A stretch of 60,184 nucleotides of DNA from Bacteroidales bacterium (GTDB taxonomy: Bacteria; Bacteroidota; Bacteroidia; Bacteroidales; VadinHA17), in assembly GCA_019429325.1 (NCBI GenBank), contig JAHYJA010000001.1, forward strand, positions 1 through 60,184. The letters are read 5' to 3'. The notes below the pieces were generated by a model. The model made no database searches, was not told where the DNA came from, and saw only the letters and a list, made by a program, of their open reading frames with translations. The translations under genes and the position numbers were made by a program. Below, piece after piece: positions 3,471 to 59,907 of this stretch (position 1 is its first letter; each line of letters begins with the position of its first letter).

Positions 3471-3503
3471 CTTCCGTCTTCGGTCTTCGGTCTTCGGTCT
3501 TCT
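3471..3503. repeat. Heptamer tandem array (CTTCSGT) x ~4.7
   Basis: cttccgt cttcggt cttcggt cttcggt cttct, between the znuB stop and the lpdA start. The same unit recurs at 57011-57024, 59651-59699 and 59888-59907. Confidence 0.9.
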
Positions 3504-3522
3504 CTATAAATATCCTGAGCAT

Positions 3523-4341
3523 CTATGGCGTACTTTTCACTGTCAGCTTTCTTACTATTTTACCTGCAACCCAGAGCAGAACAAGGGTGAAAATTATTGT
3601 CGCACCCACGGGTATCCCGGCCAGGTATGATATTGCATAACCCCCTGCGGTACCCGCGAAGGCCGCGACCACCGACCATACGACGATCCTGCTGTACACT
3701 TTTGTGAACAGCATCGCAATATTCGGAGGGATGGTAAGGAGCGAAATAACAAGCACAACCCCTGCCATCCTGATATTCAGAACTATCGTCAGGGCTATCA
3801 GGCTGGTGGTAAGATACTTGATTATATTGACATACGAGGAGTAAGTACGTGCAAATTCCTCATCGAATGATATGTAAAGAATTGTACGGTAGAAGATAAG
3901 GAAATAGAGGATAAGGACCGCCGACAAAATTCCCAGAGCGATGATATCAGCATTTGTTACGGTAAGTATACTGCCGAAAAGGTAACTCATTAGGTTCGGA
4001 GTGTAACCGGGCGTAAGATAAATGAAGATTATTCCTACTGCCATGCCGAAAGCCCATAAGATTCCGATGGCGGAATCCTCCCTGATCTTCTGTTTAACCG
4101 CAAGGTATTCCACTCCCAGGGCCGACAGGATCCCAAAAATGGCGGCGCCGGCTATGGGATTGAATCCCGCAAAATAACCGATCCCTATTCCTCCGAATGA
4201 AGCATGTGTTATACCACCACTCAGGAAAACCATTTTGCGTGTTACGATATATGTTCCTGCCAGCCCGGCTGTAATACTTGCAAAAATGGCGCCCAGCAAT
4301 CCTTTTATGATAAATCCGTATTGAAAAATATTTTCCTCCAC
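3523..4341 (-). CDS. znuB: Zinc ABC transporter permease
   Basis: 272 aa polytopic membrane protein of the ABC-3 family type. It is the last gene of a three-gene operon with an ATPase and a His-rich-loop binding protein. Its GTG start overlaps the znuC stop by 1 nt (TAGTG). Confidence 0.75.
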   Translation of the reverse strand: MEENIFQYGFIIKGLLGAIFASITAGLAGTYIVTRKMVFLSGGITHASFGGIGIGYFAGFNPIAGAAIFGILSALGVEYLAVKQKIREDSAIGILWAFGMAVGIIFIYLTPGYTPNLMSYLFGSILTVTNADIIALGILSAVLILYFLIFYRTILYISFDEEFARTYSSYVNIIKYLTTSLIALTIVLNIRMAGVVLVISLLTIPPNIAMLFTKVYSRIVVWSVVAAFAGTAGGYAISYLAGIPVGATIIFTLVLLWVAGKIVRKLTVKSTP

Positions 4342-5087
4342 TATTGGTGATATTTGAGAACTGTATGAGGAACATCACCATGAGTTATCAGCTGTATCGG
4401 GCATCCGTATGCAAGCAGCTGCTCGTTGGTTATCTCCGAAGAGGGATGATAGTGAAGCGTCTTGTTCACACAGGCAAACGATTTGACATAAGATGAGATC
4501 GTTCCTATATCATGCGAGACCATAAGAATGGCCATACGGTCGTTGAGTTCGCGCAGTTTTCCGTAAAAATCATTCTCGAAATTGGCATCCACGAAATTTC
4601 CGGGTTCATCGAGCAGAAGCAGTTTCGGGTCCCCTATAATGGCACGGCCAAGGAAAACCCTCTGAAGCTGACCGCCCGACAACTCGTTCAGCGGCGAAAG
4701 TGCCATTTCCGACAATCCGAGCTCCTCAATAACTTCAGAAGCCCTGTTCCTGTCTGCTGACGACATGGCGGGTACAAAGCTCTTTCTGATCATCAGCCCT
4801 GAAAGCAGGACATCTTTTACTGTAACCGGATAGCTTAGATCACCGGTCTGCAGCTGGGGCAGATACCCGATGCTCTTGCTGCTGACAAGGCTGCTGTTGA
4901 AACTGATACCTCCCTTAAATGGTTTTACCAGTCCGAGAATTACTTTCAGCAGAGTTGTTTTTCCTCCGCCATTGGGCCCGATAACTCCGACAAAATCATG
5001 CTCATTCACTTTGAAATCGACATCTTCAAGAACAGCACTGCCATTATATGATACTGATAAAGAGCTTATTTCAAACAGGTACGCCAT
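4341..5087 (-). CDS. znuC: Zinc ABC transporter ATP-binding protein
   Basis: Walker A GPNGGGKTT, signature LSGGQLQRV and Walker B LLLLDEP. The start is trimmed to MAYLFEISSL; the longer ORF-track N-terminus runs into znuA. Confidence 0.8.
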   Translation of the reverse strand: MAYLFEISSLSVSYNGSAVLEDVDFKVNEHDFVGVIGPNGGGKTTLLKVILGLVKPFKGGISFNSSLVSSKSIGYLPQLQTGDLSYPVTVKDVLLSGLMIRKSFVPAMSSADRNRASEVIEELGLSEMALSPLNELSGGQLQRVFLGRAIIGDPKLLLLDEPGNFVDANFENDFYGKLRELNDRMAILMVSHDIGTISSYVKSFACVNKTLHYHPSSEITNEQLLAYGCPIQLITHGDVPHTVLKYHQ

Positions 5088-5103
5088 TCTGTCAAATTGG
5101 TGT

Positions 5104-5985
5104 TCATCTTGTAAAGCTAACGTGCAGGGCATTGATAATATCCATTGTTGCATTAAGCCAGTCCTCCGACAGGGGATCAATAGTCAGGATCTCAGCGCCC
5201 GTCTCACCTGCAATTGTCCTCGCATTCCTGGTATCATGCTCCCGTTGAATGAAAATTGATCTGATATTTTCCTTCCTGGCCCTGTCAATCAGTTTCTTCA
5301 TGTGTGATGGAGAGGGTTCTTTCCCTTCATGCTCAAGGGATATCTCCTCAAGACCGTAATCCCTGGCGAGGTAGCCCAGTGAGGGATGAAATATCATAAA
5401 TGCCTTGTTCTCAACATCCTTAAACAGTGCTACAGCTATACTGTCCGCCTCTTCGATCTTTCCGGCCAGGCGCTCGTAATTTGATCCGTATTCATCAGCT
5501 TTTTCCGGATTGAGCTCCTTCAGCATATCCCTGACCGAGACAGCAATGATCAGGGCAGACCGTAGGGAGACCCAGTAATGCGGATCGGCTCCTTCAACAT
5601 GGTCGCCGGAATGTTCATGCTCAGCAACAATAGGATCGATCCTGTCGCCAATATTGAGCTTTTTCATTCGGGTATTAGCCTCATAGAAACGGTCGAGCCA
5701 TGTCATCTCAAAGCCAAGGAAACCGTTGCTGACATAAGCCACTGATCTGCGAAGATACCTCATCTGCCCCGGGTAGGGCTCATAGATATGGGGATCTGCC
5801 CCTGCAGGGACCATCACATTCACAGAGAAATCATTGCCGCCAATCTGTTCGATAAAGTACTTAAAGGGAGCAATGCTTACTGAAATTACAGGATCTGTAA
5901 GCGCCGGCCCCCTACTGCCGCACGACGTCATAAAGATAATTGCCGGAATTATCAGAATCCGGAGCATCATTCTATTTAAATTCAT
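5104..5985 (-). CDS. znuA: Zinc ABC transporter substrate-binding lipoprotein
   Basis: Lipoprotein signal (MNLNRMMLRILIIPAIIFMTSCGS) and an acidic His-rich loop AEHEHSGDHVEGADPH typical of ZnuA. The start is trimmed from 6012 to the Met preceding the signal peptide. Confidence 0.75.
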   Translation of the reverse strand: MNLNRMMLRILIIPAIIFMTSCGSRGPALTDPVISVSIAPFKYFIEQIGGNDFSVNVMVPAGADPHIYEPYPGQMRYLRRSVAYVSNGFLGFEMTWLDRFYEANTRMKKLNIGDRIDPIVAEHEHSGDHVEGADPHYWVSLRSALIIAVSVRDMLKELNPEKADEYGSNYERLAGKIEEADSIAVALFKDVENKAFMIFHPSLGYLARDYGLEEISLEHEGKEPSPSHMKKLIDRARKENIRSIFIQREHDTRNARTIAGETGAEILTIDPLSEDWLNATMDIINALHVSFTR

Positions 5986-6007
5986 TACAGGTACAAATTT
6001 AACATAT

Positions 6008-6031
6008 AACACTTCAAAAGGATTAAGTGTT
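6008..6031. promoter_or_regulatory. 7-bp inverted repeat AACACTT-N10-AAGTGTT; candidate operator in the znuA / M14 divergent region
   Basis: A perfect inverted repeat lies 23-46 nt upstream of the trimmed znuA start. Its identity as a Zur-type box is not established. Confidence 0.3.
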
Positions 6032-6051
6032 GCAAATAAAATAATATAAGC

Positions 6052-6059
6052 TATTTTTG
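6052..6059 (+). promoter_or_regulatory. Bacteroidota -7 promoter box (TAnnTTTG)
   Basis: TATTTTTG lies 32 nt upstream of the ATG at 6091. Confidence 0.45.
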
Positions 6060-6090
6060 GTTTCTCAATATTTAAATTCCCTCCTGAAAG

Positions 6091-7707: not shown

Positions 7708-7727
7708 TCCTTTATAAAACGATCATC

Positions 7728-9458: not shown

Positions 9459-9464
9459 CTCAGA

Positions 9465-10118: not shown

Positions 10119-10144
10119 GACTGCCTGTTTTTTAATTCCTTATC

Positions 10145-10152
10145 CAAAGATA
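10145..10152 (-). promoter_or_regulatory. Bacteroidota -7 promoter box (CAAAnnTA on the + strand)
   Basis: CAAAGATA lies 27 nt upstream of the minus-strand start at 10118. Confidence 0.45.
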
Positions 10153-10158
10153 GTGCCC

Positions 10159-10220
10159 TTTATGCAGGAATATTGTTAATGCAGGGTTAATGCAAGGTTA
10201 ATGTTCAGCTCAATGCTCAG
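10159..10220. promoter_or_regulatory. Phased direct repeats (WATGCWSG core, 11-12 bp period); candidate response-regulator binding array
   Basis: tatgcagg(10161), gttaatgcagg(10175), gttaatgcaag(10186), gttaatgttcag(10197) and ctcaatgctcag(10209) sit between two divergent -7 boxes. Confidence 0.45.
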
Positions 10221-10238
10221 ATATAAGATTAAAATGAA

Positions 10239-10246: not shown

Positions 10247-10265
10247 AGAATGTAAATCTTCACGG

Positions 10266-11729: not shown

Positions 11730-12431
11730 ATGAAAGTACTATTGGCAGAAGACGACAGGGATTTTGGGAATATCCTTTCGCAATATATAAGCATAAGCGG
11801 CTTCGAAGTTATCCTGGCGCGTGACGGGAAAGAAGCATGGGAACAGTTTGAAAAGAACAGGCCCGATCTGTGTGTCCTGGATGTTATGATGCCTGAAATG
11901 GATGGCTTTACGCTGGGTGAAAAAATCAAGGATGCTTCACCCGGAGTGCCGGTCATATTTCTTACTGCAAAAAGCCTGAAGGAAGATATTGTGCGCGGGC
12001 TGAAGATCGGCGCTGATGACTACATCACCAAACCCTTTGATCCCGAAGTGCTTATACTTAGGATCAACAATATACTGAAACGCGCCTATTCCGCTTCGAA
12101 CGATGAGTTCCGGATCTCGTCGACAGTTCTTAAGTTCAACACGCTCGAACTGATCAGCGGAAGCAGGAAAGAGAAGCTCACCCTGAAAGAGGCCCTGCTG
12201 CTGAAATATTTTATAGTGAACAGGAATAAAATTCTTGCCAGGGAAGATATCCTGACTGAAATATGGGGTGAGGATGACTATTTCCTGGGAAGGAGCATGG
12301 ATGTGTTCATCTCGAGATTAAGGAAATACATCTCCGACGACAAGCATATTGATATACGTACCGTCAGGGGCACCGGTTTTATCCTTGAAGAGATCCAGAA
12401 GGGAGAAGAGTTCAAAAATGAAGAACTCTGA
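11730..12431 (+). CDS. OmpR/PhoB-family response regulator (REC + winged-helix)
   Basis: REC residues EDD...DVMMPEMDG...LTAK...K, and a C-terminal Trans_reg_C-like segment LTLKEALLLKYF...RSMDVFISRLRKYI...IRTVRGTGF. Confidence 0.9.
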   Translation: MKVLLAEDDRDFGNILSQYISISGFEVILARDGKEAWEQFEKNRPDLCVLDVMMPEMDGFTLGEKIKDASPGVPVIFLTAKSLKEDIVRGLKIGADDYITKPFDPEVLILRINNILKRAYSASNDEFRISSTVLKFNTLELISGSRKEKLTLKEALLLKYFIVNRNKILAREDILTEIWGEDDYFLGRSMDVFISRLRKYISDDKHIDIRTVRGTGFILEEIQKGEEFKNEEL

Positions 12432-19452: not shown

Positions 19453-19620
19453 ATGGCTTACCAAATTAATGACGATTGTACAGCTTGTGGAACTTGTATT
19501 GATGAGTGTCCGGTTGAGGCAATTTCAGAGGGTGATATTTACGTGATTGATCCGGATGTCTGCACTGATTGCGGTGCATGCGCTGATGTTTGCCCGGTCG
19601 AGGCAATTCATCCCGCTTAA
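19453..19620 (+). CDS. fdx: 2x[4Fe-4S] ferredoxin (55 aa), not in the ORF track
   Basis: It translates to MAYQINDDCTACGTCIDECPVEAISEGDIYVIDPDVCTDCGACADVCPVEAIHPA. There are two CxxCxxCxxxCP clusters, and the gene has its own -7 box and terminator. Confidence 0.9.
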   Translation: MAYQINDDCTACGTCIDECPVEAISEGDIYVIDPDVCTDCGACADVCPVEAIHPA

Positions 19621-39206: not shown

Positions 39207-39847
39207 TGCCAGAGCGTATCTTCAGATATTTCCCGTCACTTTCAGAAATCCAGGCCGACAGAATCTCGCGCATGATGGAGATCTACCGTGAATGGAACGA
39301 CAGGATCAATGTTATCTCGCGAAAAGACCTTGAAAATTTCTATATTCATCATGTTCTTCATTCACTGTCGGTTGCCAGGATAATCTCCTTCCTGCCATCC
39401 ACGCGTATTCTGGATGTCGGTACAGGAGGGGGCTTCCCCGGCATACCCCTTGCCATACTCTTTCCCGCATCGGAGTTTACCCTTCTCGACTCTGTGGCGA
39501 AAAAGATAAAAGTGGCAGACGCTGTGATCGGCGGGCTTGGTCTGAGTAACGCCTTCACGGCAAGGAGAAGGATTGAAGAGGAAAAAGGAAAATATGATTT
39601 CGTCGTCAGCAGGGCTGTCACCGGCTTTCCCGCCCTGGTGAAGCTGACGGCAGGAAAAATCTCTGACAACAGCAGGAACAGCCTGCAGAATGGCATCATC
39701 TGCCTGAAGGGAGGCTCCATTGAGGATGAGCTTGCTCCTTTCAGAGACAGGGTCAGAATTTGGGACATAAAGGACTTCTTCTCAGAGCCATTCTTTGAAA
39801 CAAAAAAGATTATCTTTCTTCCGTCAGCTAAAGCTGACGGCAATTGA
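39206..39847 (+). CDS. rsmG: 16S rRNA (guanine527-N7)-methyltransferase
   Basis: SAM motif LDVGTGGGFPGIPLAI. Its GTG start overlaps the sigma stop by 1 nt (TAGTG). The last 8 codons plus the stop lie in a repeat element. Confidence 0.85.
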   Translation: MPERIFRYFPSLSEIQADRISRMMEIYREWNDRINVISRKDLENFYIHHVLHSLSVARIISFLPSTRILDVGTGGGFPGIPLAILFPASEFTLLDSVAKKIKVADAVIGGLGLSNAFTARRRIEEEKGKYDFVVSRAVTGFPALVKLTAGKISDNSRNSLQNGIICLKGGSIEDELAPFRDRVRIWDIKDFFSEPFFETKKIIFLPSAKADGN

Positions 39848-39997
39848 ATTTTCCTGAAACAGGACTAAGGTCCCGGACTGAGAAGGAGGGAGCCTCATCT
39901 GTCCGTCAGCTAAAGCTGACGGCAATTGAGCTGCTTCAATTGCCGTTGGCTTTAGCCAACGGATGTGGAAGCTTTTACTGCAGCCGGGCTTTAGCCC
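39821..39997. repeat. REP-like hairpin cluster with a 27-bp direct repeat
   Basis: ccgtcagctaaagctgacggcaattga occurs at 39821-39847 (rsmG 3' end) and again at 39903-39929. Consecutive 8-bp-stem hairpins are CCGTCAGC-TAAA-GCTGACGG (39903-39922), GGCAATTG-N8-CAATTGCC (39921-39944) and CCGTTGGC-TTTA-GCCAACGG (39943-39962), plus GGGC-TTTA-GCCC (39986-39997). Confidence 0.85.
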
Positions 39998-40053
39998 AAT
40001 AAAGCGAAATTCAAAAAAATTATCCCTTCAGCCTCAATTTTCCAAAAAAACAC

Positions 40054-40258: not shown

Positions 40259-40283
40259 TATTTACCAAGCCTGTAATCCATAA

Positions 40284-40315
40284 AGGGTGTCTGCTGAAAG
40301 GACACCTTTTTTTTT
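40284..40315 (+). terminator. Rho-independent terminator of rpmH
   Basis: The stem AGGGTGTC / GACACCT has a core of 6 Watson-Crick pairs and a 9-nt loop, followed by a run of 9 T. Confidence 0.8.
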
Positions 40316-44237: not shown

Positions 44238-45269
44238 ATGGCAGAAGAAGAACTCCCCGATCAGCAGGAACTATTTGAACATTTCAGATTTAATGTTGAG
44301 CCCGGGCAATCCATGCTGAGGCTGGACAAATATCTTTTCTCCAGGATCGAAAATATTTCAAGGACACGTATCCAGGATGCTGCCGCAGCAGGCAACATAC
44401 TGGTTAACAACAAGCCTGTCAGGGCAAGCTACAGGGTAAAACCCGGTGATATGATCCAGATTGTACTCCCTGCGCCACCCCGAGAAATAGAGCTTATTCC
44501 CGAGAACATCCCCCTGGACATCGTTTATGAAGATGATGATGTGATTGTGGTGAATAAGAAACCCGGCATGGTTGTTCATCCGGCCTATGGGAATTATACC
44601 GGCACACTGATAAATGCACTGATGTGGCATTTCAGGGATCTTCCGCTGTTTCAGACCGGCGAGCTCAGACCCGGACTGGTGCACAGGATCGATAAGGACA
44701 CTTCCGGCATAATTGTCGTGGCAAAAAATGAGCTCAGCCTTAACCGCTTATCGCGCCAGTTCTATGAACGTACCACTGACCGTTTGTACACTGCCATCGT
44801 CTGGGGCCGGCCGGAACCTGCCTCCGGGACCATCACGGGCCATGTCGGAAGGAACATAAGAGACAGAAAGATCATGCAGGTCTTTCCTGATGGCAGTCAG
44901 GGCAAACCTGCGGTAACACATTATAAGGTCATTGAGGATCTTGGCTATATTTCAGTCGTTGAATGCAAGCTTGAGACCGGAAGGACTCATCAGATAAGGG
45001 TCCATTTCAGCTGGTTCAGACATCCCCTGTTCAATGATGACGAGTATGGTGGTGACAGGATACTAAAGGGAACCGTCTTCAGCAAGTATCAGCAATTCGT
45101 CAGAAACTGCTTTGAAATTTTGCCCCGTCAGGCGCTTCACGCACGGTCGCTTGCATTTGATCATCCTGCTACCGGGGAGAGGCTCTCCTTCGTATCTGAC
45201 CTTCCCGGTGATATGCAGACAGTGATCGATAAATGGAGGGCATATATCTCAGGAAGGGCTGAGGGCTGA
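44238..45269 (+). CDS. rluD: 23S rRNA pseudouridine synthase, RluD/RluA family
   Basis: N-terminal S4 domain and catalytic motif HRIDKDTSG. The last 4 codons and the TGA stop lie inside the GGGCTGA array. Confidence 0.9.
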   Translation: MAEEELPDQQELFEHFRFNVEPGQSMLRLDKYLFSRIENISRTRIQDAAAAGNILVNNKPVRASYRVKPGDMIQIVLPAPPREIELIPENIPLDIVYEDDDVIVVNKKPGMVVHPAYGNYTGTLINALMWHFRDLPLFQTGELRPGLVHRIDKDTSGIIVVAKNELSLNRLSRQFYERTTDRLYTAIVWGRPEPASGTITGHVGRNIRDRKIMQVFPDGSQGKPAVTHYKVIEDLGYISVVECKLETGRTHQIRVHFSWFRHPLFNDDEYGGDRILKGTVFSKYQQFVRNCFEILPRQALHARSLAFDHPATGERLSFVSDLPGDMQTVIDKWRAYISGRAEG

Positions 45270-45307
45270 GGGCTGAGGGCTGAGGGCTGAGGGCTGAGTG
45301 CTGAGGG
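45256..45307. repeat. Heptamer tandem array (GGGCTGA) x ~7.4
   Basis: Six perfect copies plus GTGCTGA and GGG. The array contains the rluD stop codon. Confidence 0.95.
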
Positions 45308-45312
45308 AAGAT

Positions 45313-45353
45313 TTGTGAGTTGTGAGTTGTGAGTTGTGAGTTGTGAGTTGTGA
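45313..45353. repeat. Heptamer tandem array (TTGTGAG) x ~5.9
   Basis: Perfect copies. It is related to the TTGTGAT arrays at 55647 and 59567-59648. Confidence 0.95.
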
Positions 45354-45385
45354 TTAGGCTGAGCTGCCATCCCTTGTAATACGCC

Positions 45386-45426
45386 TGAATGACTATTGAA
45401 TGACTATTGAATGACTATTGAATGAC
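45386..45426. repeat. 11-mer tandem array (TGAATGACTAT) x ~3.7
   Basis: Three perfect copies plus a partial one. Confidence 0.95.
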
Positions 45427-45434
45427 CAGATAAT

Positions 45435-45469
45435 TCGCTCCATCGCTTTGTCGCTCCATCGCTCCATCA
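45435..45469. repeat. Octamer tandem array (TCGCTCCA) x ~4
   Basis: tcgctcca tcgctttg tcgctcca tcgctcca tca. Confidence 0.85.
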
Positions 45470-45483
45470 TTCCCTGCTTCCTG

Positions 45484-45590
45484 CTTTGCCAGCCGTCTTC
45501 GTCGGCCGTAGGTCGACTTCGACGACCGAAGGCCGAAGCCTTGCTTTGCCAACCGTAGCCATGCGGAGGTTGGGCGAAGGCTGGCTCCCC
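45484..45590. repeat. GC-rich hairpin block sharing words with the 59.7-59.9 kb locus
   Basis: CTTTGCCAGCC (45484) and GCGAAGGCTGGC (45574) are both also present near 59722/59831/59869. Local stems are GGTCG-N7-CGACC and CCAACC-N13-GGTTGG. Confidence 0.75.
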
Positions 45591-45610
45591 GCTCTACGCT
45601 CTACTCTATC

Positions 45611-47594: not shown

Positions 47595-48581
47595 ATGAGA
47601 ACAATAGCAATAGTTGCCGGAGGTAATTCTTCTGAATACGAGATCTCTGTAAAAAGCGCGAATGAAGTGAGTAAGACATTGTCTGCCAGATATATAACCT
47701 ATATCATAATGATCCGTGGCATCAACTGGTACTGGGAGGATCCCAAAGGGCGCTTCCACGCTGTTGACAAGAATGATTTTTCCCTGATGACCGATGATGC
47801 CAGGATAAGATTTGATGCCGTCTTCATAGCCATACATGGCACCCCGGGTGAGGACGGGCTACTGCAGGGTTATCTCGACATGCTGGAAATTCCGTATACA
47901 AGCTGCAGCTCTTTTTGCTCAGCCCTCACCTTCAACAAACAGGCCTGCAAGTCATATCTCAGAGAATACGGGATTCCTATGGCTGATTCAGTCTTAATAA
48001 ACAGGAGGGAAGTTCCCGCTACTTCTGAGATTATCAGCAGAACCGGATTGCCCTGTTTTGTCAAACCCAACGCGAGCGGGTCGAGCTTTGGGGTAAGCAA
48101 GGTCACAAAGGAGGAAGAGTTATCATCTGCCATCGAAAAAGCTTTTCATGAGAGCCCGCAGGTGATGGTGGAAGCGTTTATGGAGGGGCGTGAGGTCGGA
48201 TGCGGAGTTGTAAAATCCGGGGAAAAAACTTTGGTATTGCCTGTAACCGAGATCATCAGCAAGAATGATTTTTTCGACTACGAAGCCAAATACACTCCCG
48301 GGAGGTCTGATGAGATCACTCCCGCCGACCTGCCGGTAGAGATCACAGATGAAATTCAGGAAATGAGCTCAGCTGTTTATGACATCCTTGGCTGCAACGG
48401 GATTGTCAGGGTTGATTTTATTATCGTCGGCACGAGGCCATTTTTCCTTGAGATCAATACTGTCCCCGGGATGACGCCGGAAAGCATAGTGCCAAAGCAG
48501 GCAGAGGCTGCGGGGGTAGCGCTTGAGGAGCTCTATTCGATGGTGGTCGAAGACTGTATAAGAAGGGGCGTTACGGCGTAG
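47595..48581 (+). CDS. ddl: D-alanine--D-alanine ligase
   Basis: N-terminal MRTIAIVAGGNSSEYEIS, then HGTPGEDG, an ATP-grasp core and C-terminal EINTVPGMT. The last 5 codons and the TAG stop lie inside the GGGGCGTTACGGCGTA array. Confidence 0.9.
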   Translation: MRTIAIVAGGNSSEYEISVKSANEVSKTLSARYITYIIMIRGINWYWEDPKGRFHAVDKNDFSLMTDDARIRFDAVFIAIHGTPGEDGLLQGYLDMLEIPYTSCSSFCSALTFNKQACKSYLREYGIPMADSVLINRREVPATSEIISRTGLPCFVKPNASGSSFGVSKVTKEEELSSAIEKAFHESPQVMVEAFMEGREVGCGVVKSGEKTLVLPVTEIISKNDFFDYEAKYTPGRSDEITPADLPVEITDEIQEMSSAVYDILGCNGIVRVDFIIVGTRPFFLEINTVPGMTPESIVPKQAEAAGVALEELYSMVVEDCIRRGVTA

Positions 48582-48622
48582 GGGCGTTACGGCGTAGGGG
48601 CGTAGGGGCGTAGGGGCGTTAC
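48565..48622. repeat. Nested 16-mer/8-mer tandem array (GGGGCGTTACGGCGTA x2, GGGGCGTA x2, GGGGCGTTAC)
   Basis: Perfect copies. The array contains the ddl stop codon. Confidence 0.95.
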
Positions 48623-48626
48623 ACGT

Positions 48627-48655
48627 TGTGCCACTATGCAGCTGTGCCGCTATGC
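48627..48655. repeat. Direct repeat TGTGCCNCTATGC x2 (16-nt period)
   Basis: tgtgccactatgc agc tgtgccgctatgc. Confidence 0.8.
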
Positions 48656-48669
48656 CGTAATGCCGTTTG

Positions 48670-50090: not shown

Positions 50091-50187
50091 AAACTCTGAA
50101 ACTCTGAACCGAGGCGCTCCGCGCCGAGCTCGCCGTAGGCAAACTCTGAAACTCTGAAACTCTGAAACTCTGAAACTCTGAAACCTG
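50091..50187. repeat. Octamer tandem arrays (AAACTCTG x2 and x~5.9) flanking a GC-rich core hairpin
   Basis: Arrays lie at 50091-50106 and 50141-50187. The core at 50111-50140 contains GGCGC-TCC-GCGCC. Confidence 0.95.
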
Positions 50188-54169: not shown

Positions 54170-54262
54170 ATATTATATTTTGAATTGTAAACAACGATCT
54201 GAAGAATGAGTTCAGAGATCTGCTAAAATAACAATAAGAAAGCAGTAATAAAAAGAAAAGGG

Positions 54263-54904: not shown

Positions 54905-54910
54905 AAGCGA

Positions 54911-55561
54911 TCATGTGTTATTAACTGTGCCTTTCAGCATCGGGACAAAAACAAAGTTTCCGTGCGAAGAGTATTCATAAGTATCTTCACCTGTCCTGAT
55001 GACCACTGTCATTTCCTGCGAAAAGGAATTTCCCAGGGGAACCACGAGCCTGCCTCCCGTTTTAAGCTGTTTAAGAAGGTTTTCAGGTACTTCCGGAGCG
55101 GCGGCGGTTATTACAATACCGTCGTAGGGGCCATACTGAGGTTTCCCCTCATAACCATCTCCGAAAAAGAAATCGGCACTATAACCAAGTGAAGAAAGCG
55201 TTCTCTGGGCTTTCAGGAATAATTCCCTGTGGCGCTCTATGGTATAGACCTTTGCGCCCATTTCAGCGAGGATAGCTGCCTGATATCCCGAGCCGGTGCC
55301 GATCTCGAGAATCTTATCCTTTCTCTTTATCTTAAGCAGAGATGTCTGGACGGCAACCGTGTAGGGTTGAGAAATTGTTTGCCCGGAGGTGATCGGGAAG
55401 GCTTTATCGACGTAAGCATGGTTCAGGAATGCCGGGTCCATGAAATCATGACGCGGTACTTTGCCAAAAGCTCTTAATACTTCCTCATCGGTTATACCCT
55501 TTTTACGGAGCTCCTCTACAAGCTTTTTTCTTTTGCCTTTTGCCTCGAAATTGTCTGTCAT
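54911..55561 (-). CDS. pcm: Protein-L-isoaspartate O-methyltransferase
   Basis: PRHDF, the ISQPY motif and SAM motif LEIGTGSGYQAA. The start is trimmed to MTDNFEAKG because the 54 extra ORF-track codons translate the tandem arrays. A -7 box lies 25 nt upstream of the trimmed start. Confidence 0.85.
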   Translation of the reverse strand: MTDNFEAKGKRKKLVEELRKKGITDEEVLRAFGKVPRHDFMDPAFLNHAYVDKAFPITSGQTISQPYTVAVQTSLLKIKRKDKILEIGTGSGYQAAILAEMGAKVYTIERHRELFLKAQRTLSSLGYSADFFFGDGYEGKPQYGPYDGIVITAAAPEVPENLLKQLKTGGRLVVPLGNSFSQEMTVVIRTGEDTYEYSSHGNFVFVPMLKGTVNNT

Positions 55562-55585
55562 CAGTTGACCAGGTAGTGTGGGAGA

Positions 55586-55593
55586 CAAAAATA
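55586..55593 (-). promoter_or_regulatory. Bacteroidota -7 promoter box
   Basis: CAAAAATA lies 25 nt upstream of the pcm start at 55561. Confidence 0.45.
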
Positions 55594-55646
55594 AGAAAAA
55601 TGTAACACAACCTTTCTGCCGTTGGCTAAAAGCGGAGGACGGGGAG

Positions 55647-55688
55647 TTGTGATTTGGGATTTGTGATGTGTGATTTGTGATTTGTGAC
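55647..55688. repeat. Heptamer tandem array (TTGTGAT) x6
   Basis: ttgtgat ttgggat ttgtgat gtgtgat ttgtgat ttgtgac. Confidence 0.9.
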
Positions 55689-55736
55689 CATCGAACCATC
55701 GAACCATCGAACCGTCGAACCATAGTACCGTCGAAC
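55689..55736. repeat. Octamer tandem array (CATCGAAC) x6
   Basis: Three perfect copies, then ccgtcgaa c-catagtac-cgtcgaac variants. It directly abuts the heptamer array. Confidence 0.9.
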
Positions 55737-55744
55737 GACTAACG

Positions 55745-56299: not shown

Positions 56300-56910
56300 A
56301 ACCTACCGGATTCTATTTCAGTGACTATCAACTCAATAAGCAGATCATTTCCAAACGGATCGTAGCTGTCTTTGAGATTGGTGCCGAAAATCCTGGCGAC
56401 AGCCTGCCAGAATGTTGCAGAAAAGGTTCCCCTGTACTGTCTTATCAGTTCATAGGATGTGTTCTGTGTTTCCCTGTCAATAAGCTTTATCAGCAGTCTC
56501 CCCTGCGTTATTGTCATTTCACGGATATCATCCTCATATTCTGCAAAAACCTCCTTCTCGATGTCCCTGAGATATCTTCTCCTGCTCACATCTTCAGGGA
56601 TCTTTTCAAGATGGGCATTAACGTCCCCCAGCTTTGCCCTTACGATAATCGCATAAGGATATACCTTTTTCAGGTTATAAACGAGCCGCTGGTACCTCCA
56701 GAATGCAAACCTGCCCGTGGACTCTGAGCGCCCCATAATCGTTACCTCCTTTATTGCAATTTCTGGCAGGACCTCACCATCTCTTTCAACCTTGTTAAGT
56801 ACGTAGCCACGGCCCGGAAGAGAATCGGTTCCCTGCCGCAGAGTATCATTCTGTCCGGAAGCGGCAACAGTTGCAAGGAGAAATAATACTATTGAAATAA
56901 TGAGCCTCAC
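56296..56910 (-). CDS. DUF4294-like secreted protein
   Basis: It has a signal peptide. The size (204 aa) and a conserved-looking central region (YPYAIIV, LIKLIDRETQNTSYELI) match my recollection of DUF4294. It overlaps thpR by 4 nt. GTG start. Confidence 0.5.
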   Translation of the reverse strand: MRLIISIVLFLLATVAASGQNDTLRQGTDSLPGRGYVLNKVERDGEVLPEIAIKEVTIMGRSESTGRFAFWRYQRLVYNLKKVYPYAIIVRAKLGDVNAHLEKIPEDVSRRRYLRDIEKEVFAEYEDDIREMTITQGRLLIKLIDRETQNTSYELIRQYRGTFSATFWQAVARIFGTNLKDSYDPFGNDLLIELIVTEIESGRL

Positions 56911-56928
56911 TGATTAAACAGGTTTTTA

Positions 56929-56936
56929 CAAAGGTA
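56929..56936 (-). promoter_or_regulatory. Bacteroidota -7 promoter box
   Basis: CAAAGGTA lies 19 nt upstream of the start at 56910. Confidence 0.45.
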
Positions 56937-57009
56937 TCAAATAACAGGCCATTTAAAATAACCGGAAACCATCCGTAAAATTGTCCGGATATAATCGCTT
57001 TCTCCACTC

Positions 57010-57041
57010 CCGTCTTCGGTCTTACTTGGCTCAGTGCACAG
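57010..57041. repeat. 32-nt anchor word shared with 59689-59720 (29/32 identical)
   Basis: ccgtcttcggtcttacttggctcagtgcacag vs ccgtcttccgtctttcttggctcagagcacag. Confidence 0.9.
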
Positions 57042-57070
57042 TGCAGAGGGGCAGAATATCTTAAAATACC

Positions 57071-57098
57071 GATTACTGATTACTGATTACTGATTACC
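57071..57098. repeat. Heptamer tandem array (GATTACT) x4
   Basis: Three perfect copies plus GATTACC. It is followed by ATTACCAACT, which recurs at 59419-59428. Confidence 0.95.
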
Positions 57099-57102
57099 AA
57101 CT

Positions 57103-57188
57103 ATCTCCTGCTTCCGCTTTCGGTTTTCGTTCTCTCTTGTCTCCCCCTCTCCCCCTCTCCTCTTCTCCCCTTCTTTCCTCCCGTCTCC
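57103..57188 (+). repeat. Polypyrimidine (CT-rich) tract
   Basis: About 90% C/T over 86 nt, with an uninterrupted 43-nt pyrimidine run at 57140-57182. It contains GTCTCCCCCTCTCC (57139-57152), identical to 59543-59556. Confidence 0.9.
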
Positions 57189-57241
57189 AAATTTTTCGTA
57201 TCTTGTTCTGGCATGCCCATTTGGGATAATAATAAGGTCTT

Positions 57242-59419
57242 ATGAAATTTCCGGACTTTGCCAGGGCAGATAAATGGATGACGAAAATCCTGAGTTACCC
57301 GGGCATTGATGAAAAAACACTCAGCCAGAAGAAGATCAACTGGATGGCAAGCCTTGCCGTCACTTCAATGATACTGTGCCTTACAATTGTATACCATATC
57401 ATCTTTCCCCACTTGCGAATTCTGATCTGGTACGGTTTATTTCTTACTATTGTCTTTTCCCAGGGGATCATATATCCTGTAATATTCCGCCGTACGGGGA
57501 TTTGGATTTTAATCGTTGATCAGGTACTGGTAGCTGTCGCCACATTCATTGTTATACTCAAACTCGGAGGGATACCCTATTCAGGAGGACTTGTAATGGT
57601 TGGTATTGCCCTGGTCTTTTTTTCTCTCAATTTCAGGAAAAAGAGCCATTCGATCTGGATCTATCTTATTTACGTTATCACAGTGATCCTTGCGGGTATC
57701 CTCCATCCATATCTTACGATACCTCCGGAAATGACTTCTGAGGTCAACATCTCCCTCTTCGTTATTAACATCCTTTGGATATCGGGTTTTGCCATGATCT
57801 TTGTGCTCAGCTTCATTTCCCAGCGCGTGAAGCTTGAGCAGGCGGAAACAAGGCGGGTGAAGGAACTGGAAGAGGCAAAGTCGAGGCTTTATACCAATAT
57901 TACACACGAATTTCGTACTCCCCTTACCATAATCTCCGGCATGACGGACCTCATCCGGAATGAGCCTGAGCGATGGGTCGACGAAGGCACCGAAAAAATC
58001 GACCGGAACGTTCATGTTCTTCAAAACCTTGTCAATCAAATGCTTGATCTGGCGAAGCTTGAGGCCGGGGCTATGACTGTTAATATGATCAGGGCTGATG
58101 TTTACCTCTATATCAGTTACTTGGTTGAACTGTTCCGGTCGTTGGCTGATGAAAGGAATATTGAGCTCCGGTTCACCCCCCATGATGCCCCGCTTATTAT
58201 CGACCACGATCCGGACAAGCTTATGCAGATCCTGTCAAATCTGATTTCTAATTCCTTGAAATTCACCCCGGAAGACGGTACTGTTAAGGTAAGCACATCC
58301 TTGACAAGCAGCGGAGATTATCAGATAAGCGTAAGTGATAATGGTCCCGGAATACCTGAAGAGAAGCTCCCTTTTGTGTTTGACCGTTTCTACAGGACGA
58401 ATGAAAAAACTGATGGATCAGTACCCGGATCTGGCTTGGGGCTGGCACTGGTTAGAGAAATGGTAAAGCTTCTTAGAGGAACAATCGAAGTGAGGAGTAT
58501 ATTTGGAAAGGGAACTGAATTCATCATCTCCCTCCCTGTAACATATGAGGCACCCCTTCAGGAGAAACAACAATTAAACGGTCTTGAAGTGAAGGTTTCA
58601 ACGGATAAAATTAAGTTTAATCATGATGACAGAGCTCCCGGCTCCTCTTATGAATCCGATGCCGGCCATGAAAAACCCTTGCTCCTGATTACAGAAGATA
58701 ACGATGATGTTGTTCAGTACCTCAGGACTATTCTGGAGGATGAGTATGTAGTAATGACTGCCGCCGACGGAAGGGAGGGAGTCAGCATAGCGCTTGAATA
58801 TGTTCCAGACATTATCCTAAGTGATATAATGATGCCGTTGATGGATGGCATTGAGATGCTCAGCATCATAAAGGAGGATATGCGTACAAGCCATATCCCT
58901 GTGGTAATGCTGACTGCAAAGGCAGATATTGATTCGCGGATCGAAGGACTTGAAAGGGGTGCTGATGCATATATTGCCAAACCCTTTAACAGGGATGAAC
59001 TGCTGGTACAGTTGAAGTCACTGACGGAATCACGGAAGAAACTCAGGCAGAGGTATGCGGCAACAAGTCCCCCGGTCCTGTCTGAAGAGAGTGATTTTGC
59101 TATTGAGGATGCATTTATTAAAAGGGCACGTGAGGTTATGACAGCTAATCTGGGTAATGAAACGTATGATATCCAGAGTCTCTGCGGTGAAGTGGCGATG
59201 AGCCGCACACAACTCTATCGGAAGTTCGGGTCCCTGACCGGCACAACCCCGAACCAGTATTTTCTTTCCATGCGACTTCATGAAGCCAGGAAGATTCTCG
59301 GCCTGCCCGACGTCACCGTTGCCGAAGCAGCTTACAAAACAGGTTTTAAAAACATCTCCCATTTCAGCCAGGCCTTCTCTCGCGAGTTCGGCACTCCTCC
59401 GAGGGAGGTCCGTAAATAA
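57242..59419 (+). CDS. Hybrid sensor histidine kinase / response regulator with C-terminal AraC-type HTH
   Basis: N-terminal ~6-7 TM helices, H-box ITHEFRTPLTII, DNGPGIP, GSGLGLAL, a REC domain (LLLITEDNDD...SDIMMPLMDG...LTAK) and an AraC HTH (FKNISHFSQAFSREFGTPP). Confidence 0.9.
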   Translation: MKFPDFARADKWMTKILSYPGIDEKTLSQKKINWMASLAVTSMILCLTIVYHIIFPHLRILIWYGLFLTIVFSQGIIYPVIFRRTGIWILIVDQVLVAVATFIVILKLGGIPYSGGLVMVGIALVFFSLNFRKKSHSIWIYLIYVITVILAGILHPYLTIPPEMTSEVNISLFVINILWISGFAMIFVLSFISQRVKLEQAETRRVKELEEAKSRLYTNITHEFRTPLTIISGMTDLIRNEPERWVDEGTEKIDRNVHVLQNLVNQMLDLAKLEAGAMTVNMIRADVYLYISYLVELFRSLADERNIELRFTPHDAPLIIDHDPDKLMQILSNLISNSLKFTPEDGTVKVSTSLTSSGDYQISVSDNGPGIPEEKLPFVFDRFYRTNEKTDGSVPGSGLGLALVREMVKLLRGTIEVRSIFGKGTEFIISLPVTYEAPLQEKQQLNGLEVKVSTDKIKFNHDDRAPGSSYESDAGHEKPLLLITEDNDDVVQYLRTILEDEYVVMTAADGREGVSIALEYVPDIILSDIMMPLMDGIEMLSIIKEDMRTSHIPVVMLTAKADIDSRIEGLERGADAYIAKPFNRDELLVQLKSLTESRKKLRQRYAATSPPVLSEESDFAIEDAFIKRAREVMTANLGNETYDIQSLCGEVAMSRTQLYRKFGSLTGTTPNQYFLSMRLHEARKILGLPDVTVAEAAYKTGFKNISHFSQAFSREFGTPPREVRK

Positions 59420-59453
59420 TTACCAACTGCTCTCTATGGCTCAGGGCAAGACT

Positions 59454-59504
59454 GTCGTGCAGGTCGTGCAGGTCATGCAGGTCATGCAAGTCGTGCAAGT
59501 CTGA
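59454..59504. repeat. Nonamer tandem array (GTCGTGCAG) x ~5.6
   Basis: gtcgtgcag gtcgtgcag gtcatgcag gtcatgcaa gtcgtgcaa gtctga. Confidence 0.95.
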
Positions 59505-59566
59505 AGAAACTTCTTAATTATGCCCTTGGTATTCGACCTCCTGTCTCCCCCTCTCCATTTTGGTTT

Positions 59567-59648
59567 GATTTTTGAATTGTGATTTTTGAATTGTGATTTT
59601 TGATTTTAAATCACAAATCCAGACTCACGAATCACAAATCACAAATCA
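59567..59648. repeat. Imperfect long inverted repeat built from tandem units (GATTTTTGAATTGT x2.6 facing TCACAAA-type heptamers)
   Basis: The left arm (59567-59603) contains TTGTGAT words. The right arm (59611-59648) contains their complement, TCACAAA. The centre is tttaaa. Confidence 0.85.
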
Positions 59649-59650
59649 AT

Positions 59651-59699
59651 CTTCCTCCTTCGGTCTTCCGTCTTCGGTCTTCCGTCTTCCGTCTTCCGT
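59651..59699. repeat. Heptamer tandem array (CTTCSGT) x7
   Basis: cttcctc cttcggt cttccgt cttcggt cttccgt cttccgt cttccgt. This is the same unit as at 3471-3503. Confidence 0.95.
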
Positions 59700-59795
59700 C
59701 TTTCTTGGCTCAGAGCACAGGCTTTGCCAGCCATAGCTGGACGAAGGACAGCGACGGCTGGGCTCAGAGCTTAGGGCAAGAGAGTAATTCTGTTT

Positions 59796-59890
59796 GCCAA
59801 CTGCCAACTGCTTTGTCAGCCGTAGCTTCAGCGAAGGCTGGCCAACTGCTTTGTCAGCCGTAGCTTCAGCGAAGGCTGGCCAACTGCTTT
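59796..59890. repeat. 38-nt perfect tandem duplication (x2.3), each unit carrying a hairpin
   Basis: gccaactgctttgtcagccgtagcttcagcgaaggctg occurs at 59803-59840 and 59841-59878, with partial copies on both sides. The stem is CAGCC-N14-GGCTG. Confidence 0.95.
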
Positions 59891-59907
59891 CCGTCTTCCG
59901 TCTTCCA
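59888..59907. repeat. Short CTTCCGT array (x ~2.7)
   Basis: tttccgt cttccgt cttcca closes the repeat-rich spacer. Confidence 0.8.

Follow-up and report, generated by a model that had tools for sequence, protein, structure and literature searches.

Heptamer-rich tandem arrays and REP-like hairpins in the spacers of an uncultured Bacteroidales bacterium: probably two kinds of repeat sharing one niche

Background

Why should spacers scattered along one bacterial contig carry the same short words? The question is raised by a stretch of 60,184 bp from an uncultured Bacteroidales bacterium (assembly GCA_019429325.1, contig JAHYJA010000001.1, positions 1 to 60,184), which we call the window. A preliminary description of this DNA noticed that at least eight of its intergenic spacers consist largely of tandem arrays of short units and of GC-rich hairpins, and that several words recur between spacers. 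It proposed a single modular family in which conserved anchors enclose variable arrays and for which a common generating mechanism or a common binding or processing factor is responsible. Here we suggest a different answer. The arrays and the hairpins are probably two unrelated kinds of non-coding repeat, both known: long simple-sequence repeats, and elements that resemble repetitive extragenic palindromes (REPs). What they have in common would be a permissive niche, the spacers that contain a gene 3' end.

The survey of arrays, words and hairpins covered the window, and syntenic DNA of relatives was used for comparison in depth. Four of the relatives (L001 to L004, from ENA, NCBI, Logan and JGI) are independent assemblies of a single lineage; they are 99.95% identical to one another and 88-92% identical to the window. 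L005 represents a third lineage, and L006 (79% amino-acid identity) and L007 and L008 (78%) are more distant. Two wider scans were made, one for three consecutive copies of CTTCSGT in one genome per GTDB species, the other for exact CCGTCAGCTRAAGCTGACGG, the longer hairpin of the element described below, in JGI metagenome contigs. They returned at least 119 and at least 120 stretches, respectively, and all figures derived from them refer to the matches listed. Coordinates are those of the window and of its plus strand unless stated otherwise.

Long simple-sequence repeats in the spacers

The arrays at the loci named in the preliminary description were all recovered by Tandem Repeats Finder, and the hairpins and shared words are present where they had been placed. 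The window has about 25 arrays with periods of 7-16 nt, up to 7.6 copies and 75-100% matches, each 15-88 nt long; about half of them have period 7. Arrays cover 752 of 4098 intergenic bp (18.4%) versus 204 of 56086 coding bp (0.36%), a 50-fold enrichment. CTTCSGT arrays occur at four spacers and TTGTGAK arrays at three. The preliminary description did not recognise in this architecture any of the classical repeats that it considered, and it would have given up the idea of a system on a match to a described family. At the level of kind, however, there is a match (PMC4679880): head-to-tail units of 5-11 nt that are longer than chance, predominantly heptameric, intergenic and present at multiple loci are long simple-sequence repeats.

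Such repeats, with units of 5-11 nt (Mrazek 2007, as summarised in PMC4679880), have been reported in Cyanobacteria, Beggiatoaceae and some Bacteroidetes. Heptamers are their commonest class, and slippage is the proposed cause (PMC4679880). Arrays of TAACTGA are found in all three groups (MacGregor 2015, PMC4679880), and there are Bacteroidetes with mixed heptamer assemblages whose close relatives have short repeat-free spacers (PMC4679880). The window arrays resemble long simple-sequence repeats, cyanobacterial short tandemly repeated repetitive (STRR) heptamers and TAACTGA arrays in running head to tail and in being mostly heptamers, with 2-8 copies here and up to tens elsewhere. They lie almost wholly between genes, several units abut in one spacer, one unit serves many loci, and the distribution is patchy and includes Bacteroidetes, close relatives having short array-free spacers. 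In contrast to STRR and TAACTGA arrays, the units here are CTTCSGT, AGGGCTG, TTGTGAK, AGCGTAR and others, TAACTGA arrays are not in the window, the host belongs to an uncultured environmental lineage of Bacteroidales, and some arrays face inverted copies of themselves and so form long hairpins. The window arrays are often downstream of stop codons, whereas those of the Guaymas Beggiatoa are just upstream of start codons.

A second comparison is with the G-quadruplex-forming heptamer repeats GGGNATC of Xanthomonas and Nostoc (Rehm 2015, PMC4692102). Units with G-tracts in the window (AGGGCTG in 7.6 copies, AGGGGCGT, GGGGGAGA) similarly lie within about 50 nt of the stops of aligned or convergent open reading frames (ORFs). 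Unlike GGGNATC repeats, G-rich units are a minority here and show no preference for four units; their capacity to form quadruplexes is predicted from the sequence. Clustered regularly interspaced short palindromic repeats (CRISPR) were correctly set aside in the preliminary description. They too are repetitive, non-coding and intergenic, but their direct repeats of 24-48 nt alternate with unique spacers of like length, usually near cas genes. In the window units abut, so that the period equals the unit length, there are no unique spacers, and Pfam finds no cas domain or gene among the window proteins.

Turnover of arrays among relatives

BLASTN synteny between the window and L001 breaks exactly at the arrays, and the flanks are collinear. 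Window positions 45275-45583 (309 nt) correspond to 19 nt in L001, and so do positions 48572-48661 (90 nt). The same spacers carry arrays in relatives, but with other units or copy numbers. The spacer between the RluD-like and TPM genes holds (AGGGCTG)x2.9 and (CGCTCTA)x4.7 in L001, (TCTCCCCC)x4.4 in L005 and about 25 copies of CGCTCAC in L007. That between the Ddl and oxidoreductase genes has (AGCGTAR)x3-4 within 19 nt in L001 and L005, (GGCGCAGA)n in L007 and (AGGGGCGT)n in the window; AGCGTAR occurs at four spacers within 21 kb of L001. Orthologous arrays of the window and L001 differ by whole units: AGGGCTG has 7.6 and 2.9 copies, CGCTCTA 2.1 and 4.7, TTGTGAT 5.9 and 2.7. Arrays may be homogeneous, as AAACTCTG is with 100% matches, or decayed, as is AAACYYTG in L001. 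Within about 10% of gene divergence, replacement of the arrays is complete.

On a shorter time-scale the picture is different. The preliminary description had hypervariability in mind. Across the four assemblies of the L001 lineage no array has an indel; taken with the other units seen across lineages, this means that the arrays are reproducible and not hypervariable on the time-scale of strains. It also bears on two other explanations. One is that these are contingency loci, hypermutable simple-sequence repeats that switch adjacent genes by phase variation. Such a role would fit non-triplet simple-sequence repeats at gene boundaries, the RluD stop codon inside an array and the arrays just upstream of the PCMT start. 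We nevertheless find it highly improbable, given that lengths are constant within a strain-level lineage, copy numbers are low (2-8), most arrays are downstream of stop codons and the flanking genes are housekeeping genes rather than surface or restriction genes. The other is that the arrays are chimeric or mis-collapsed products of short-read metagenome assembly. The exact lineage of the window is indeed represented by a single contig, and runs of N at the hairpin cluster of L002 show that assemblers struggle there. Still, four independent assemblies of the sister lineage carry identical arrays at the same spacers, two further lineages have arrays too, arrays of 15-88 nt are shorter than a read, and the flanks are collinear with relatives. 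An artefact of this sort can hardly be believed.

Shared words and copied junctions

Which of the shared words need an explanation? The recurrences include GTCTCCCCCTCTCC (57139 and 59543), ATTACCAACT (57093 and 59419), GCGAAGGCTGGC (45574, 59831 and 59869), CTTTGCCAGCC (45484 and 59722), and an anchor described as 32 nt long at 57010 and 59689, which we measure as 35 nt at 57007 and 59686 with 89% identity (family D14). Four pairs of spacers have an exact word of 14 nt or more in common versus 0.27 expected under a first-order Markov null, an approximately 15-fold excess. For words of at least 12 nt the figures are 10 observed and 2.1 expected (about 5-fold; the maximum in 100 trials was 7). 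The claim of shared words is thus sound for 14 nt and above and fails for 7- to 12-mers taken alone. Isolated heptamers occur at roughly the chance rate, with 20 of 33 CTTCSGT and 11 of 25 TTGTGAK matches outside the spacers, coding DNA included, and a lone match of 10-12 nt, ATTACCAACT or GCGAAGGCTGGC for instance, lies close to chance. Significance is confined to the arrays, to words of at least 14 nt and to words that occur together in one hairpin architecture.

Identical junctions of an array with its non-repeat flank, 19, 25 and 35 nt long, occur at non-orthologous spacers. The 19-nt junction TCTTGTCTCCCCCTCTCCC is found at window position 57136 and in the RluD/TPM spacer of L005, another, GGAGCGTAGAGCGTAAAGCGTAAAG, in the DUF4294 spacer of L001 and the Ddl spacer of L005, and the 35-nt (CTTCSGT)n-CTTGGCTCAGWGCACAG junction at 57007 and 59686 of the window. 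Since flanks would not be recreated by independent slippage, we infer that blocks are now and then copied between spacers. Two blocks of the composite at 59419-59906 are 85% identical in L001, in swapped order and beside different genes. We considered whether the spacers on either side of the kinase gene are a collinear duplication and rejected this: the modules are permuted, and global alignment is uninformative. Conserved anchors with variable arrays between them are likewise not what is seen, as modules are permuted between spacers and between lineages.

The recurrences extend beyond a local duplication, as the preliminary description required of a genuine system: (CTTCSGT)n, the CCGT..TAAA hairpin and a GC hairpin containing GTAG all recur in other genomes. 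Three copies of CTTCSGT were found in several phyla. About half of the stretches listed belong to Bacteroidota (Bacteroidales, Rikenellaceae, Cyclobacteriaceae, Flavobacteriaceae); the other hosts listed include Acidobacteriota, Gemmatimonadota, Actinomycetes and delta-proteobacteria. These stretches often adjoin further 7- to 8-mer arrays. Of the other window units, only the 9-mer GTCGTGCAG (in L119, a metagenome-assembled genome (MAG) of Bacteroidales) was met with at least three perfect copies in 1.6 Mb of other loci, so that the shared vocabulary is mostly limited to the immediate clade.

A two-hairpin element of the REP kind

The hairpin that the preliminary description characterised as CCGT..TAAA is part of a larger element. 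It consists of a short hairpin H1 (GRCTAAAGYC), about 21 nt, a longer hairpin H2 (CCGTCAGCTRAAGCTGACGG) and then CAAT. Among the JGI stretches listed, a contig has up to six copies of H2; IMG/VR viral contigs gave merely four H2 matches. Proteins encoded on the element-bearing contigs point to Bacteroidales, Tenuifilaceae/Rikenellaceae and Lentimicrobiaceae, and L095 is a Bacteroidales MAG. H1 precedes the 8-bp H2 by 21-34 nt in 100 of 131 non-redundant copies. The core of H1 is invariant, CTAAAG (91%) or CTGAAG, while its stem varies (GGGC/GCCC, GGAC/GTCC, TGGC/GCCA and others). The interval between the hairpins is pyrimidine-rich, AAT stands directly 5' of H1, and H2 is followed by a conserved tail, CAATNRA (C 76%, A 95%, A 94%, T 75%). 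The element is thus bounded by AAT on the left and CAAT on the right, which could be cleavage or target sites.

The structure is supported by covariation. One pair of H1 is GC in 43 sequences, AU in 16 and mismatched in 1, and the observed score was reached by none of 500 shuffles. A covariance model (R1) was built from 60 copies. The H2 stem has compensated variants CA/TG, TG/CA and CG/CG, and the loops CUAAAG/CUGAAG are conserved as the stems vary. The context of 211 copies was convergent in 35 cases, tandem in 68 and divergent in 14, with 8 of 125 classifiable copies inside called ORFs. Pairs of elements are inverted in 62 cases versus 8 direct. One metagenome contig (L227, 3760-6900) carries an arginine operon, identified from ORF translations as argR, an acetyltransferase gene, argG, argC and argD, with an inverted doublet of about 130 nt in every spacer. 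Could the element be a small ORF? An ATG often precedes H1, and H2 with its tail can be read as PSAKADGN and a stop, but the distance between H1 and H2 (mode 25 nt) is no multiple of three, and we rejected this candidate. Only 9 of 214 copies extend an ORF of at least 100 codons.

Did the preliminary description rightly deny a relation to REPs and bacterial interspersed mosaic elements (BIMEs)? In organisation, no. REPs, BIMEs, REP doublets forming hairpins (REPINs) and their REP-associated tyrosine transposases (RAYTs, or TnpA-REP) have been described in detail (Di Nocera 2013, PMC3733652; Quentin 2018, PMC6006769; Bertels and Rainey 2011, PMC3116915). The element has in common with them a GC-rich palindrome of 20 nt with a 4-nt loop, many dispersed intergenic copies, a prevalence of inverted pairs with head-to-tail copies rare, a location between unidirectional or convergent genes, compensatory stem changes and occasional overlap with gene 3' ends. 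Its apical motif, GGCTTTAGCC or GGACTTYAGTCC, is that of REPs of RAYT subclasses 2.7 and 2.8, for example GTAGGACAGGCTTTAGCCTGTC of Ignavibacterium and GTAGTGAGGACTTYAGTCCTC of Anabaena (PMC6006769 Table S1).

The denial stands in one respect. Canonical REPs have a conserved 5' GT[AG]G tetranucleotide at the hairpin foot (PMC6006769, PMC3733652), whereas here CAAT follows the hairpin (ATTG precedes it on the other strand). Unlike a REP, the unit also has two parts, a short hairpin of variable stem and a longer conserved one about 21 nt apart with the same loop, and no RAYT gene was found flanking it in the fetched loci. REPs tagged with CGTC have an unpaired terminal CGTC, a stem of 8-9 bp opening with two A-T pairs, a loop of 4-5 nt and a CCA tail (PMC3733652); in the element CGTC is paired within the stem (CCGTCAGC/GCTGACGG), the stem opens with C-G pairs and the tail is CAAT. 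Because it has neither the GT[AG]G foot nor the features of CGTC-tagged REPs, and no cognate transposase turned up in the fetched loci, we call the element REP-like and not a canonical REP.

The search for a RAYT was a motif scan of the fetched loci. It found one RAYT-like ORF (L149, 12400-13080; DHVH ... WQ ... YIKNNP), which is flanked by a different REP, three tandem copies of the 27-nt GGCTCCCTTCGGCTTCGCTCTGGGAGCC upstream and one downstream, and was therefore rejected as a partner of the two-hairpin element. This ORF and its flanking REP look like a REPtron in their own right; the two-hairpin element lies 7 kb away on the same contig.

Neither Rfam nor the searchable literature appears to know the element, a widespread and structurally supported member or variant of the REP kind. 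The Rfam search that the preliminary description had called for brought no relevant match: the window had none against 4227 covariance models at gathering thresholds, and with an E-value threshold nothing but sub-threshold matches to miRNA precursors and snoRNAs. A literature search by sequence string brought no relevant match for the hairpin element. A more ambitious idea, tentative and rather less probable than its negation, is that NNGRCTAAAGYCNN, about 21 nt, CCGTCAGCTRAAGCTGACGG and CAATNRA define an uncatalogued family spread through the whole order Bacteroidales, either a non-GTAG variant of REPs or a structured RNA motif. In the first case, by analogy, an unstudied HUH/Y1 enzyme of Bacteroidetes could handle it, for example of RAYT subclass 2.6, which in Bacteroidetes is flanked by sparsely described 'atypical secondary structures' (PMC6006769). 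In the second case the element could be read through its conserved CUAAAG/CUGAAG loops.

Two observations on variants of the element may be added. In 4 of 131 copies (for example in L147, L157, L176 and L191) the tail after H2 is TAACTGA, the heptamer of MacGregor's arrays, which may be a coincidence. At least eight contigs from two related samples, Ga0272441 and Ga0272442 (L131, L133, L138, L185, L188, L206, L212, L218) have a near-identical composite of more than 100 nt made of GGACTAAAGTCC, H2, an AT hairpin and CCGTTGGCTTTAGCCAACGG, so that a larger unit may recently have been amplified in one genome.

One system or two?

Are arrays and hairpins made by one mechanism? Metagenome loci that bear the hairpin, 741 kb in all, have arrays over 2.2% of their non-ORF bases within 150 nt of a hairpin and over 4.7% elsewhere, and H2 occurs in one of the 119 (CTTCSGT)n loci listed (L095). 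Since arrays are not enriched near hairpins, one common system is not supported, and with it the single family of the preliminary description falls.

A more specific form of that idea is a composite, modular and non-autonomous mobile element, similar to miniature inverted-repeat transposable elements (MITEs), whose arrays and hairpins are moved or assembled by one enzyme. Several facts would suit it. The (CTTCSGT)n-CTTGGCTCAGWGCACAG junction is present twice, the palindrome block and the hairpin block both lie downstream of a different gene in L001, an array replaces the hairpin within a 60-nt tandem unit of L095, and at least eight contigs of one metagenome sample have the near-identical hairpin composite of more than 100 nt. 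MITEs, likewise repetitive, intergenic and non-coding, are units of 50-500 nt in many copies, bounded by terminal inverted repeats and target-site duplications. Neither of these was found at the bounds of the window composites, and the order of their modules is permuted. Arrays are not enriched beside hairpins, the hairpin is missing from most (CTTCSGT)n loci, other window units except one 9-mer lack three perfect copies in the 1.6 Mb of other loci, and orthologous arrays change in place by unit steps. We consider such an element very unlikely.

Some link between the two kinds of repeat exists all the same. Hairpin arms are multiplied in tandem in L194 (20-mer x5.8), L229 (15-mer x5.4), L001 (15-mer x2.3) and also L158, and the CCGTC arm of L095 is the start of a (CTTCGGT) array, which occupies the slot of the hairpin within the 60-nt tandem unit. 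From these cases we infer that hairpins can seed arrays, which does not imply that arrays in general originate from hairpins. Elhai and colleagues reportedly described, in Genome Research in 2008, small dispersed repeats (SDR) of Nostoc punctiforme that are embedded in tandem heptamers. The window likewise has tiny hairpin elements beside heptamer arrays, and the hairpin at 50109-50140 is flanked on both sides by arrays of one 8-mer; different from Nostoc are the phylum, the sequences and the absence of a statistical coupling of hairpins with arrays. The order of events at 50109 can be suggested from sequence comparison. L005 has a hairpin alone, L001 a hairpin of different stem and a decayed array, and L007 a spacer of 11 nt, so that the hairpin may well be older than its flanking array rather than inserted into it.

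We therefore return to two kinds of repeat in a common niche, for which the following scheme can be proposed. Long simple-sequence repeats with units of 7-16 nt, mostly heptamers, would arise and change length by replication slippage. Array blocks with their flanks would occasionally be copied between spacers by ectopic recombination or template switching, whereby the same unit, and even the same array-flank junction, comes to lie at unlinked sites. The hairpin elements, of at least two families, would be non-autonomous and mobilised in trans by a transposase of the HUH/Y1 (RAYT) type encoded elsewhere in the genome. Partial duplication of a hairpin arm would seed new arrays, and both kinds would be tolerated downstream of genes. 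The shared words are then a mix of array units, of the consensus of a REP family and of two junctions duplicated on either side of a swapped gene, and they can be accounted for without a sequence-specific cellular function.

Several points weigh against this scheme. Arrays make up 3.4% of intergenic bp in the first 39 kb and 30% in 39-60 kb; this unevenness, and the persistence of arrays at the same few spacers in four lineages, could reflect local selection or a local mechanism. Pure slippage would not lead one to expect that a number of arrays pair with inverted copies of themselves as long hairpins (z = -4 to -5). The evidence for slippage and for ectopic copying comes from patterns between lineages, and the window's own lineage has only one assembly. 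No transposase is linked to either hairpin family in the fetched loci. Finally, the GT[AG]G foot is not found on the two-hairpin element (GTAG or CTAC occurs 7 times in 100 spacers, at no fixed position), and mobilisation by a RAYT is thus suggested by analogy.

The genes of the window are housekeeping genes of the sort typical of Bacteroidota: GldB, Por_Secre_tail, DnaB, Ddl, GcvP, rpmH and a hybrid HisKA-HATPase-REC-AraC regulator (Pfam). Pfam and the gene list of a syntenic relative agree with the preliminary description that the window has no transposase or integrase. Nothing in it is able to mobilise repeats, and any mobility would be non-autonomous, as that description had said. No tRNA or transfer-messenger RNA (tmRNA) gene was found in the window. 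An apparent 351-nt convergent spacer contains, at 19454-19620, an ORF of 55 aa resembling a 2x[4Fe-4S] ferredoxin (MAYQINDDCTACGTC...), which we read directly from the sequence as it is below the 100-aa cut-off of the ORF list.

The spacers of the window

The three copies of the two-hairpin element that R1 finds in the window are all at one locus, the gidB/rpmH spacer. Copy a (39793-39850; 48.9 bits, E = 1e-8) has H2 as CCGTCAGCTAAAGCTGACGG (39821-39840) and the tail CAATTGA and lacks H1. Positions 39821-39847 of it encode the final eight codons (PSAKADGN) and the TGA stop of gidB/rsmG; L001 reads PSAEADGN. Copy b (39859-39932; 50.0 bits, E = 5e-9) is complete, with H1 GGACTAAGGTCC (39862-39873), H2 (39903-39922) and tail CAATTGA. 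Copy c (39933-40000, minus strand; 57.1 bits, E = 1e-10) is inverted and lies tail to tail with b, as in a REPIN or BIME doublet; its H2 variant CCGTTGGC..GCCAACGG (39943) has two compensatory pairs, and its H1 is GGGCTAAAGCCC (39986-39997). Positions 39815-39964 fold with -77 kcal/mol (z = -8.7). The cluster is kept in L001, and L006 has unrelated inverted repeats there. In L002, a UBA genome, runs of N fall exactly at this cluster and inside lemA (12334-12385, 5463-5516); the cluster appears to break or mask short-read assemblies.

The arrays begin with (CTTCGGT)x4.6 at 3471-3502, between the stop of an ABC-3 permease gene (3523, minus strand) and the start of an lpd-like gene (3428). At 45255-45468 four arrays abut, (AGGGCTG)x7.6, (TTGTGAG)x5.9, (TGAATGACTAT)x3.7 and (TCGCTCCA)x4.2, and the TGA stop of the RluD-like pseudouridine synthase gene (45255-45269) falls within the first of them, as it does in L001. 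The same spacer has, at 45480-45586, two GC-rich hairpins that belong to a second hairpin family (repeat families D7 and D8). In them GCTTTGCCARCC is followed by an outer stem whose two arms enclose GTA, an inner hairpin and GAA, and the pattern ends with GCGAAGGCTGGC. By energy alone their fold (z = -1.5) does not stand out. The words CTTTGCCAGCC and GCGAAGGCTGGC are words of this architecture, which is found at 45503 and twice in the 38-mer (59817 and 59855), with looser copies at 45543 and 59720. Two copies of CCGCC-GTA-GCTTCAGC-GAA-GGCGG stand in tandem in the Bacteroidales MAG L086, their core identical to that of the window 38-mer and their outer stem compensated; the second family thus extends beyond the window. 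It contains GTAG, but inside its loop or internal loop. A remnant array (CGCTCTA)x2.1 follows at 45590-45604; in L001 it has 4.7 copies, and the unit is also present at three further spacers of L001.

The convergent Ddl/oxidoreductase spacer is filled by an 8/16-mer array (AGGGGCGT / AGGGGCGTTACGGCGT) and its imperfect inverted copy (48564-48662), which together form a hairpin of about 45 bp that is not present in relatives. Positions 48560-48668 fold with -57 kcal/mol (z = -5.0) on the plus strand and -38 kcal/mol on the minus strand. Between a URO-D-like gene and an oxidoreductase gene (50091-50184) two perfectly matching arrays of AAACTCTG (x2.2 at 50091, x5.5 at 50141) flank the 33-nt GC hairpin. 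At 55619-55736 lie a decayed H2 arm CCGTTGGCTAAAAGCGGAGGACGG (55619-55642), (TTGTGAT)x5.9 (55647) and (ACCATCGA)x6.2 (55687). The arm had been called a degenerate copy of the hairpin; a 12-mer match to 39951 does exist, but it is near chance and R1 does not detect it. As (ACCATCGA)n and (TTGTGAT)n have no stop codon on the minus strand, the PCMT ORF (54911-55723, minus strand) reaches 270 aa. The gene is called at 216 aa in relatives, and automatic annotation probably over-extends its start.

The divergent spacer at 57007-57174 has a junction of (CTTCSGT)x2 with CTTGGCTCAGTGCACAG (57007-57041), (TACTGAT)x4.4 (57067), and TCTTGTCTCCCCCTCTCCC heading (TCTCCCCC)x4.4 (57140). The composite 3' of the hybrid kinase gene (59419-59906) has arrays of 9-, 14-, 7-, 7-, 38- and 7-mers from 59442. 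In order, its parts are (GTCGTGCAG)x5.3, GTCTCCCCCTCTCC, an AT-rich palindrome in which (TGATTTTTGAATTG)x2.7 and (AAATCAC)x5.9 face each other, (TCTTCCG)x7.6 carrying the junction's second copy, the GC hairpin at 59720-59765, the 38-mer CAGCC-GTA-GCTTCAGC-GAA-GGCTG in 2.3 copies, and (TTCCGTC)x2.6. The TTGTGAT palindrome (59556-59655) folds with z = -4.3. The spacers of the more distant relatives L006 (14512-14684 and 12327-12609) and L007 (1-238 and 3718-3939) contain a further repeat type, imperfect (CACAGAG N)n arrays set opposite inverted copies of themselves, in the layout of the TTGTGAT palindrome (window 59564-59648).

The gene between these two spacers deserves mention. At 57242-59419 the window has a gene for a 725-aa hybrid HisKA-HATPase-REC-AraC protein, with a DUF4294 neighbour on one side and the repeat blocks downstream on the other; between the same neighbour and blocks, L001 (730-2745), L004 and L006 (1-1609) have a gene of about 670 aa with TPR plus HTH_18. 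The two proteins are merely 28% identical, over the HTH, and the genes past the downstream spacer are not the same either. One gene seems to have been replaced by another between array-rich spacers.

Gene 3' ends and possible functions

Do the arrays and hairpins serve the gene ends at which they lie? They could be bidirectional terminators or insulators of convergent genes, 3' stem-loops that protect operon mRNAs and set their half-life, as REPs and BIMEs do in E. coli, or tracts that form G-quadruplexes or bind proteins and so regulate neighbouring genes post-transcriptionally. The preliminary description counted seven of eight loci touching a gene 3' end, and we agree with the count. The contrast that it drew with divergent spacers is not significant: 7 of 15 spacers versus 1 of 9 in the window (Fisher one-sided p = 0.087). 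The two-hairpin element is depleted in divergent spacers and present in operon spacers, and its loops are constant where its stems vary. The Ddl/oxidoreductase spacer (z = -5.0) and the TTGTGAT palindrome (z = -4.3) far outfold their shuffles, and the former folds much better on the plus strand by virtue of G-U pairs, as an RNA would. Tracts of AGGGCTG, AGGGGCGT and GGGGGAGA are predicted to be capable of forming G-quadruplexes, and the literature reports transcribed quadruplex repeats made of G-rich heptamers close to stop codons (PMC4692102).

Termination itself can be considered. The sole convincing consensus terminator in 39-59 kb follows rpmH (40282-40310). With one canonical intrinsic terminator in that interval, other 3'-end signals must exist, a point in favour of function. 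None of the 12 terminator-like sites in 39-59 kb coincides with an array or a REP-like hairpin, though, and no hairpin is followed by a T-run, so that their transcripts would be without U-tracts. Array sequence is unconserved even between lineages with 90% identical genes, 19 nt suffice in L001 and L005 where the window has 90 or 309 nt, and the long hairpin at 48564 is missing from relatives. Array orientation tracks neither transcription nor GC skew. All CTTCSGT arrays and most TTGTGAK arrays of the window are on the plus strand, but a bias for one replication strand was rejected, as orientation agrees with local GC skew in just 59 of 129 arrays of other genomes. Besides, selfish elements tolerated downstream of genes would be expected to have the same distribution. 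On balance we doubt that a function at 3' ends accounts for arrays and hairpins. Long hairpins or G-rich tracts at convergent gene ends may still affect termination or mRNA decay incidentally.

Implications

A bolder version of the idea of an uncatalogued family can be imagined, in which a causal link would underlie the co-occurrence of TTTA/TTCA-loop REPs and heptamer arrays in these Bacteroidales, in Cyanobacteria and in Flexibacter. Heptamer arrays would then be seeded when REP-type hairpins are nicked, or by the repair that comes later. If correct, this would explain the patchy distribution of heptamer repeats, for which an explanation has long been wanting.

For those who annotate such genomes there are practical warnings. 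Arrays lengthen ORFs artificially, supply stop codons or C-terminal residues to genes, and break assemblies. Many array units contain TGA or TAG, with the result that all three frames are stopped within three units.

Whatever the mechanism is, uncultured Bacteroidales of several lineages have abundant and fast-turning arrays rich in heptamers, which extends a phenomenon known mainly from Cyanobacteria and Beggiatoaceae. The covariance model of a widespread two-hairpin element that Rfam does not hold could provide a handle toward the enzyme that mobilises it, or a marker for typing.

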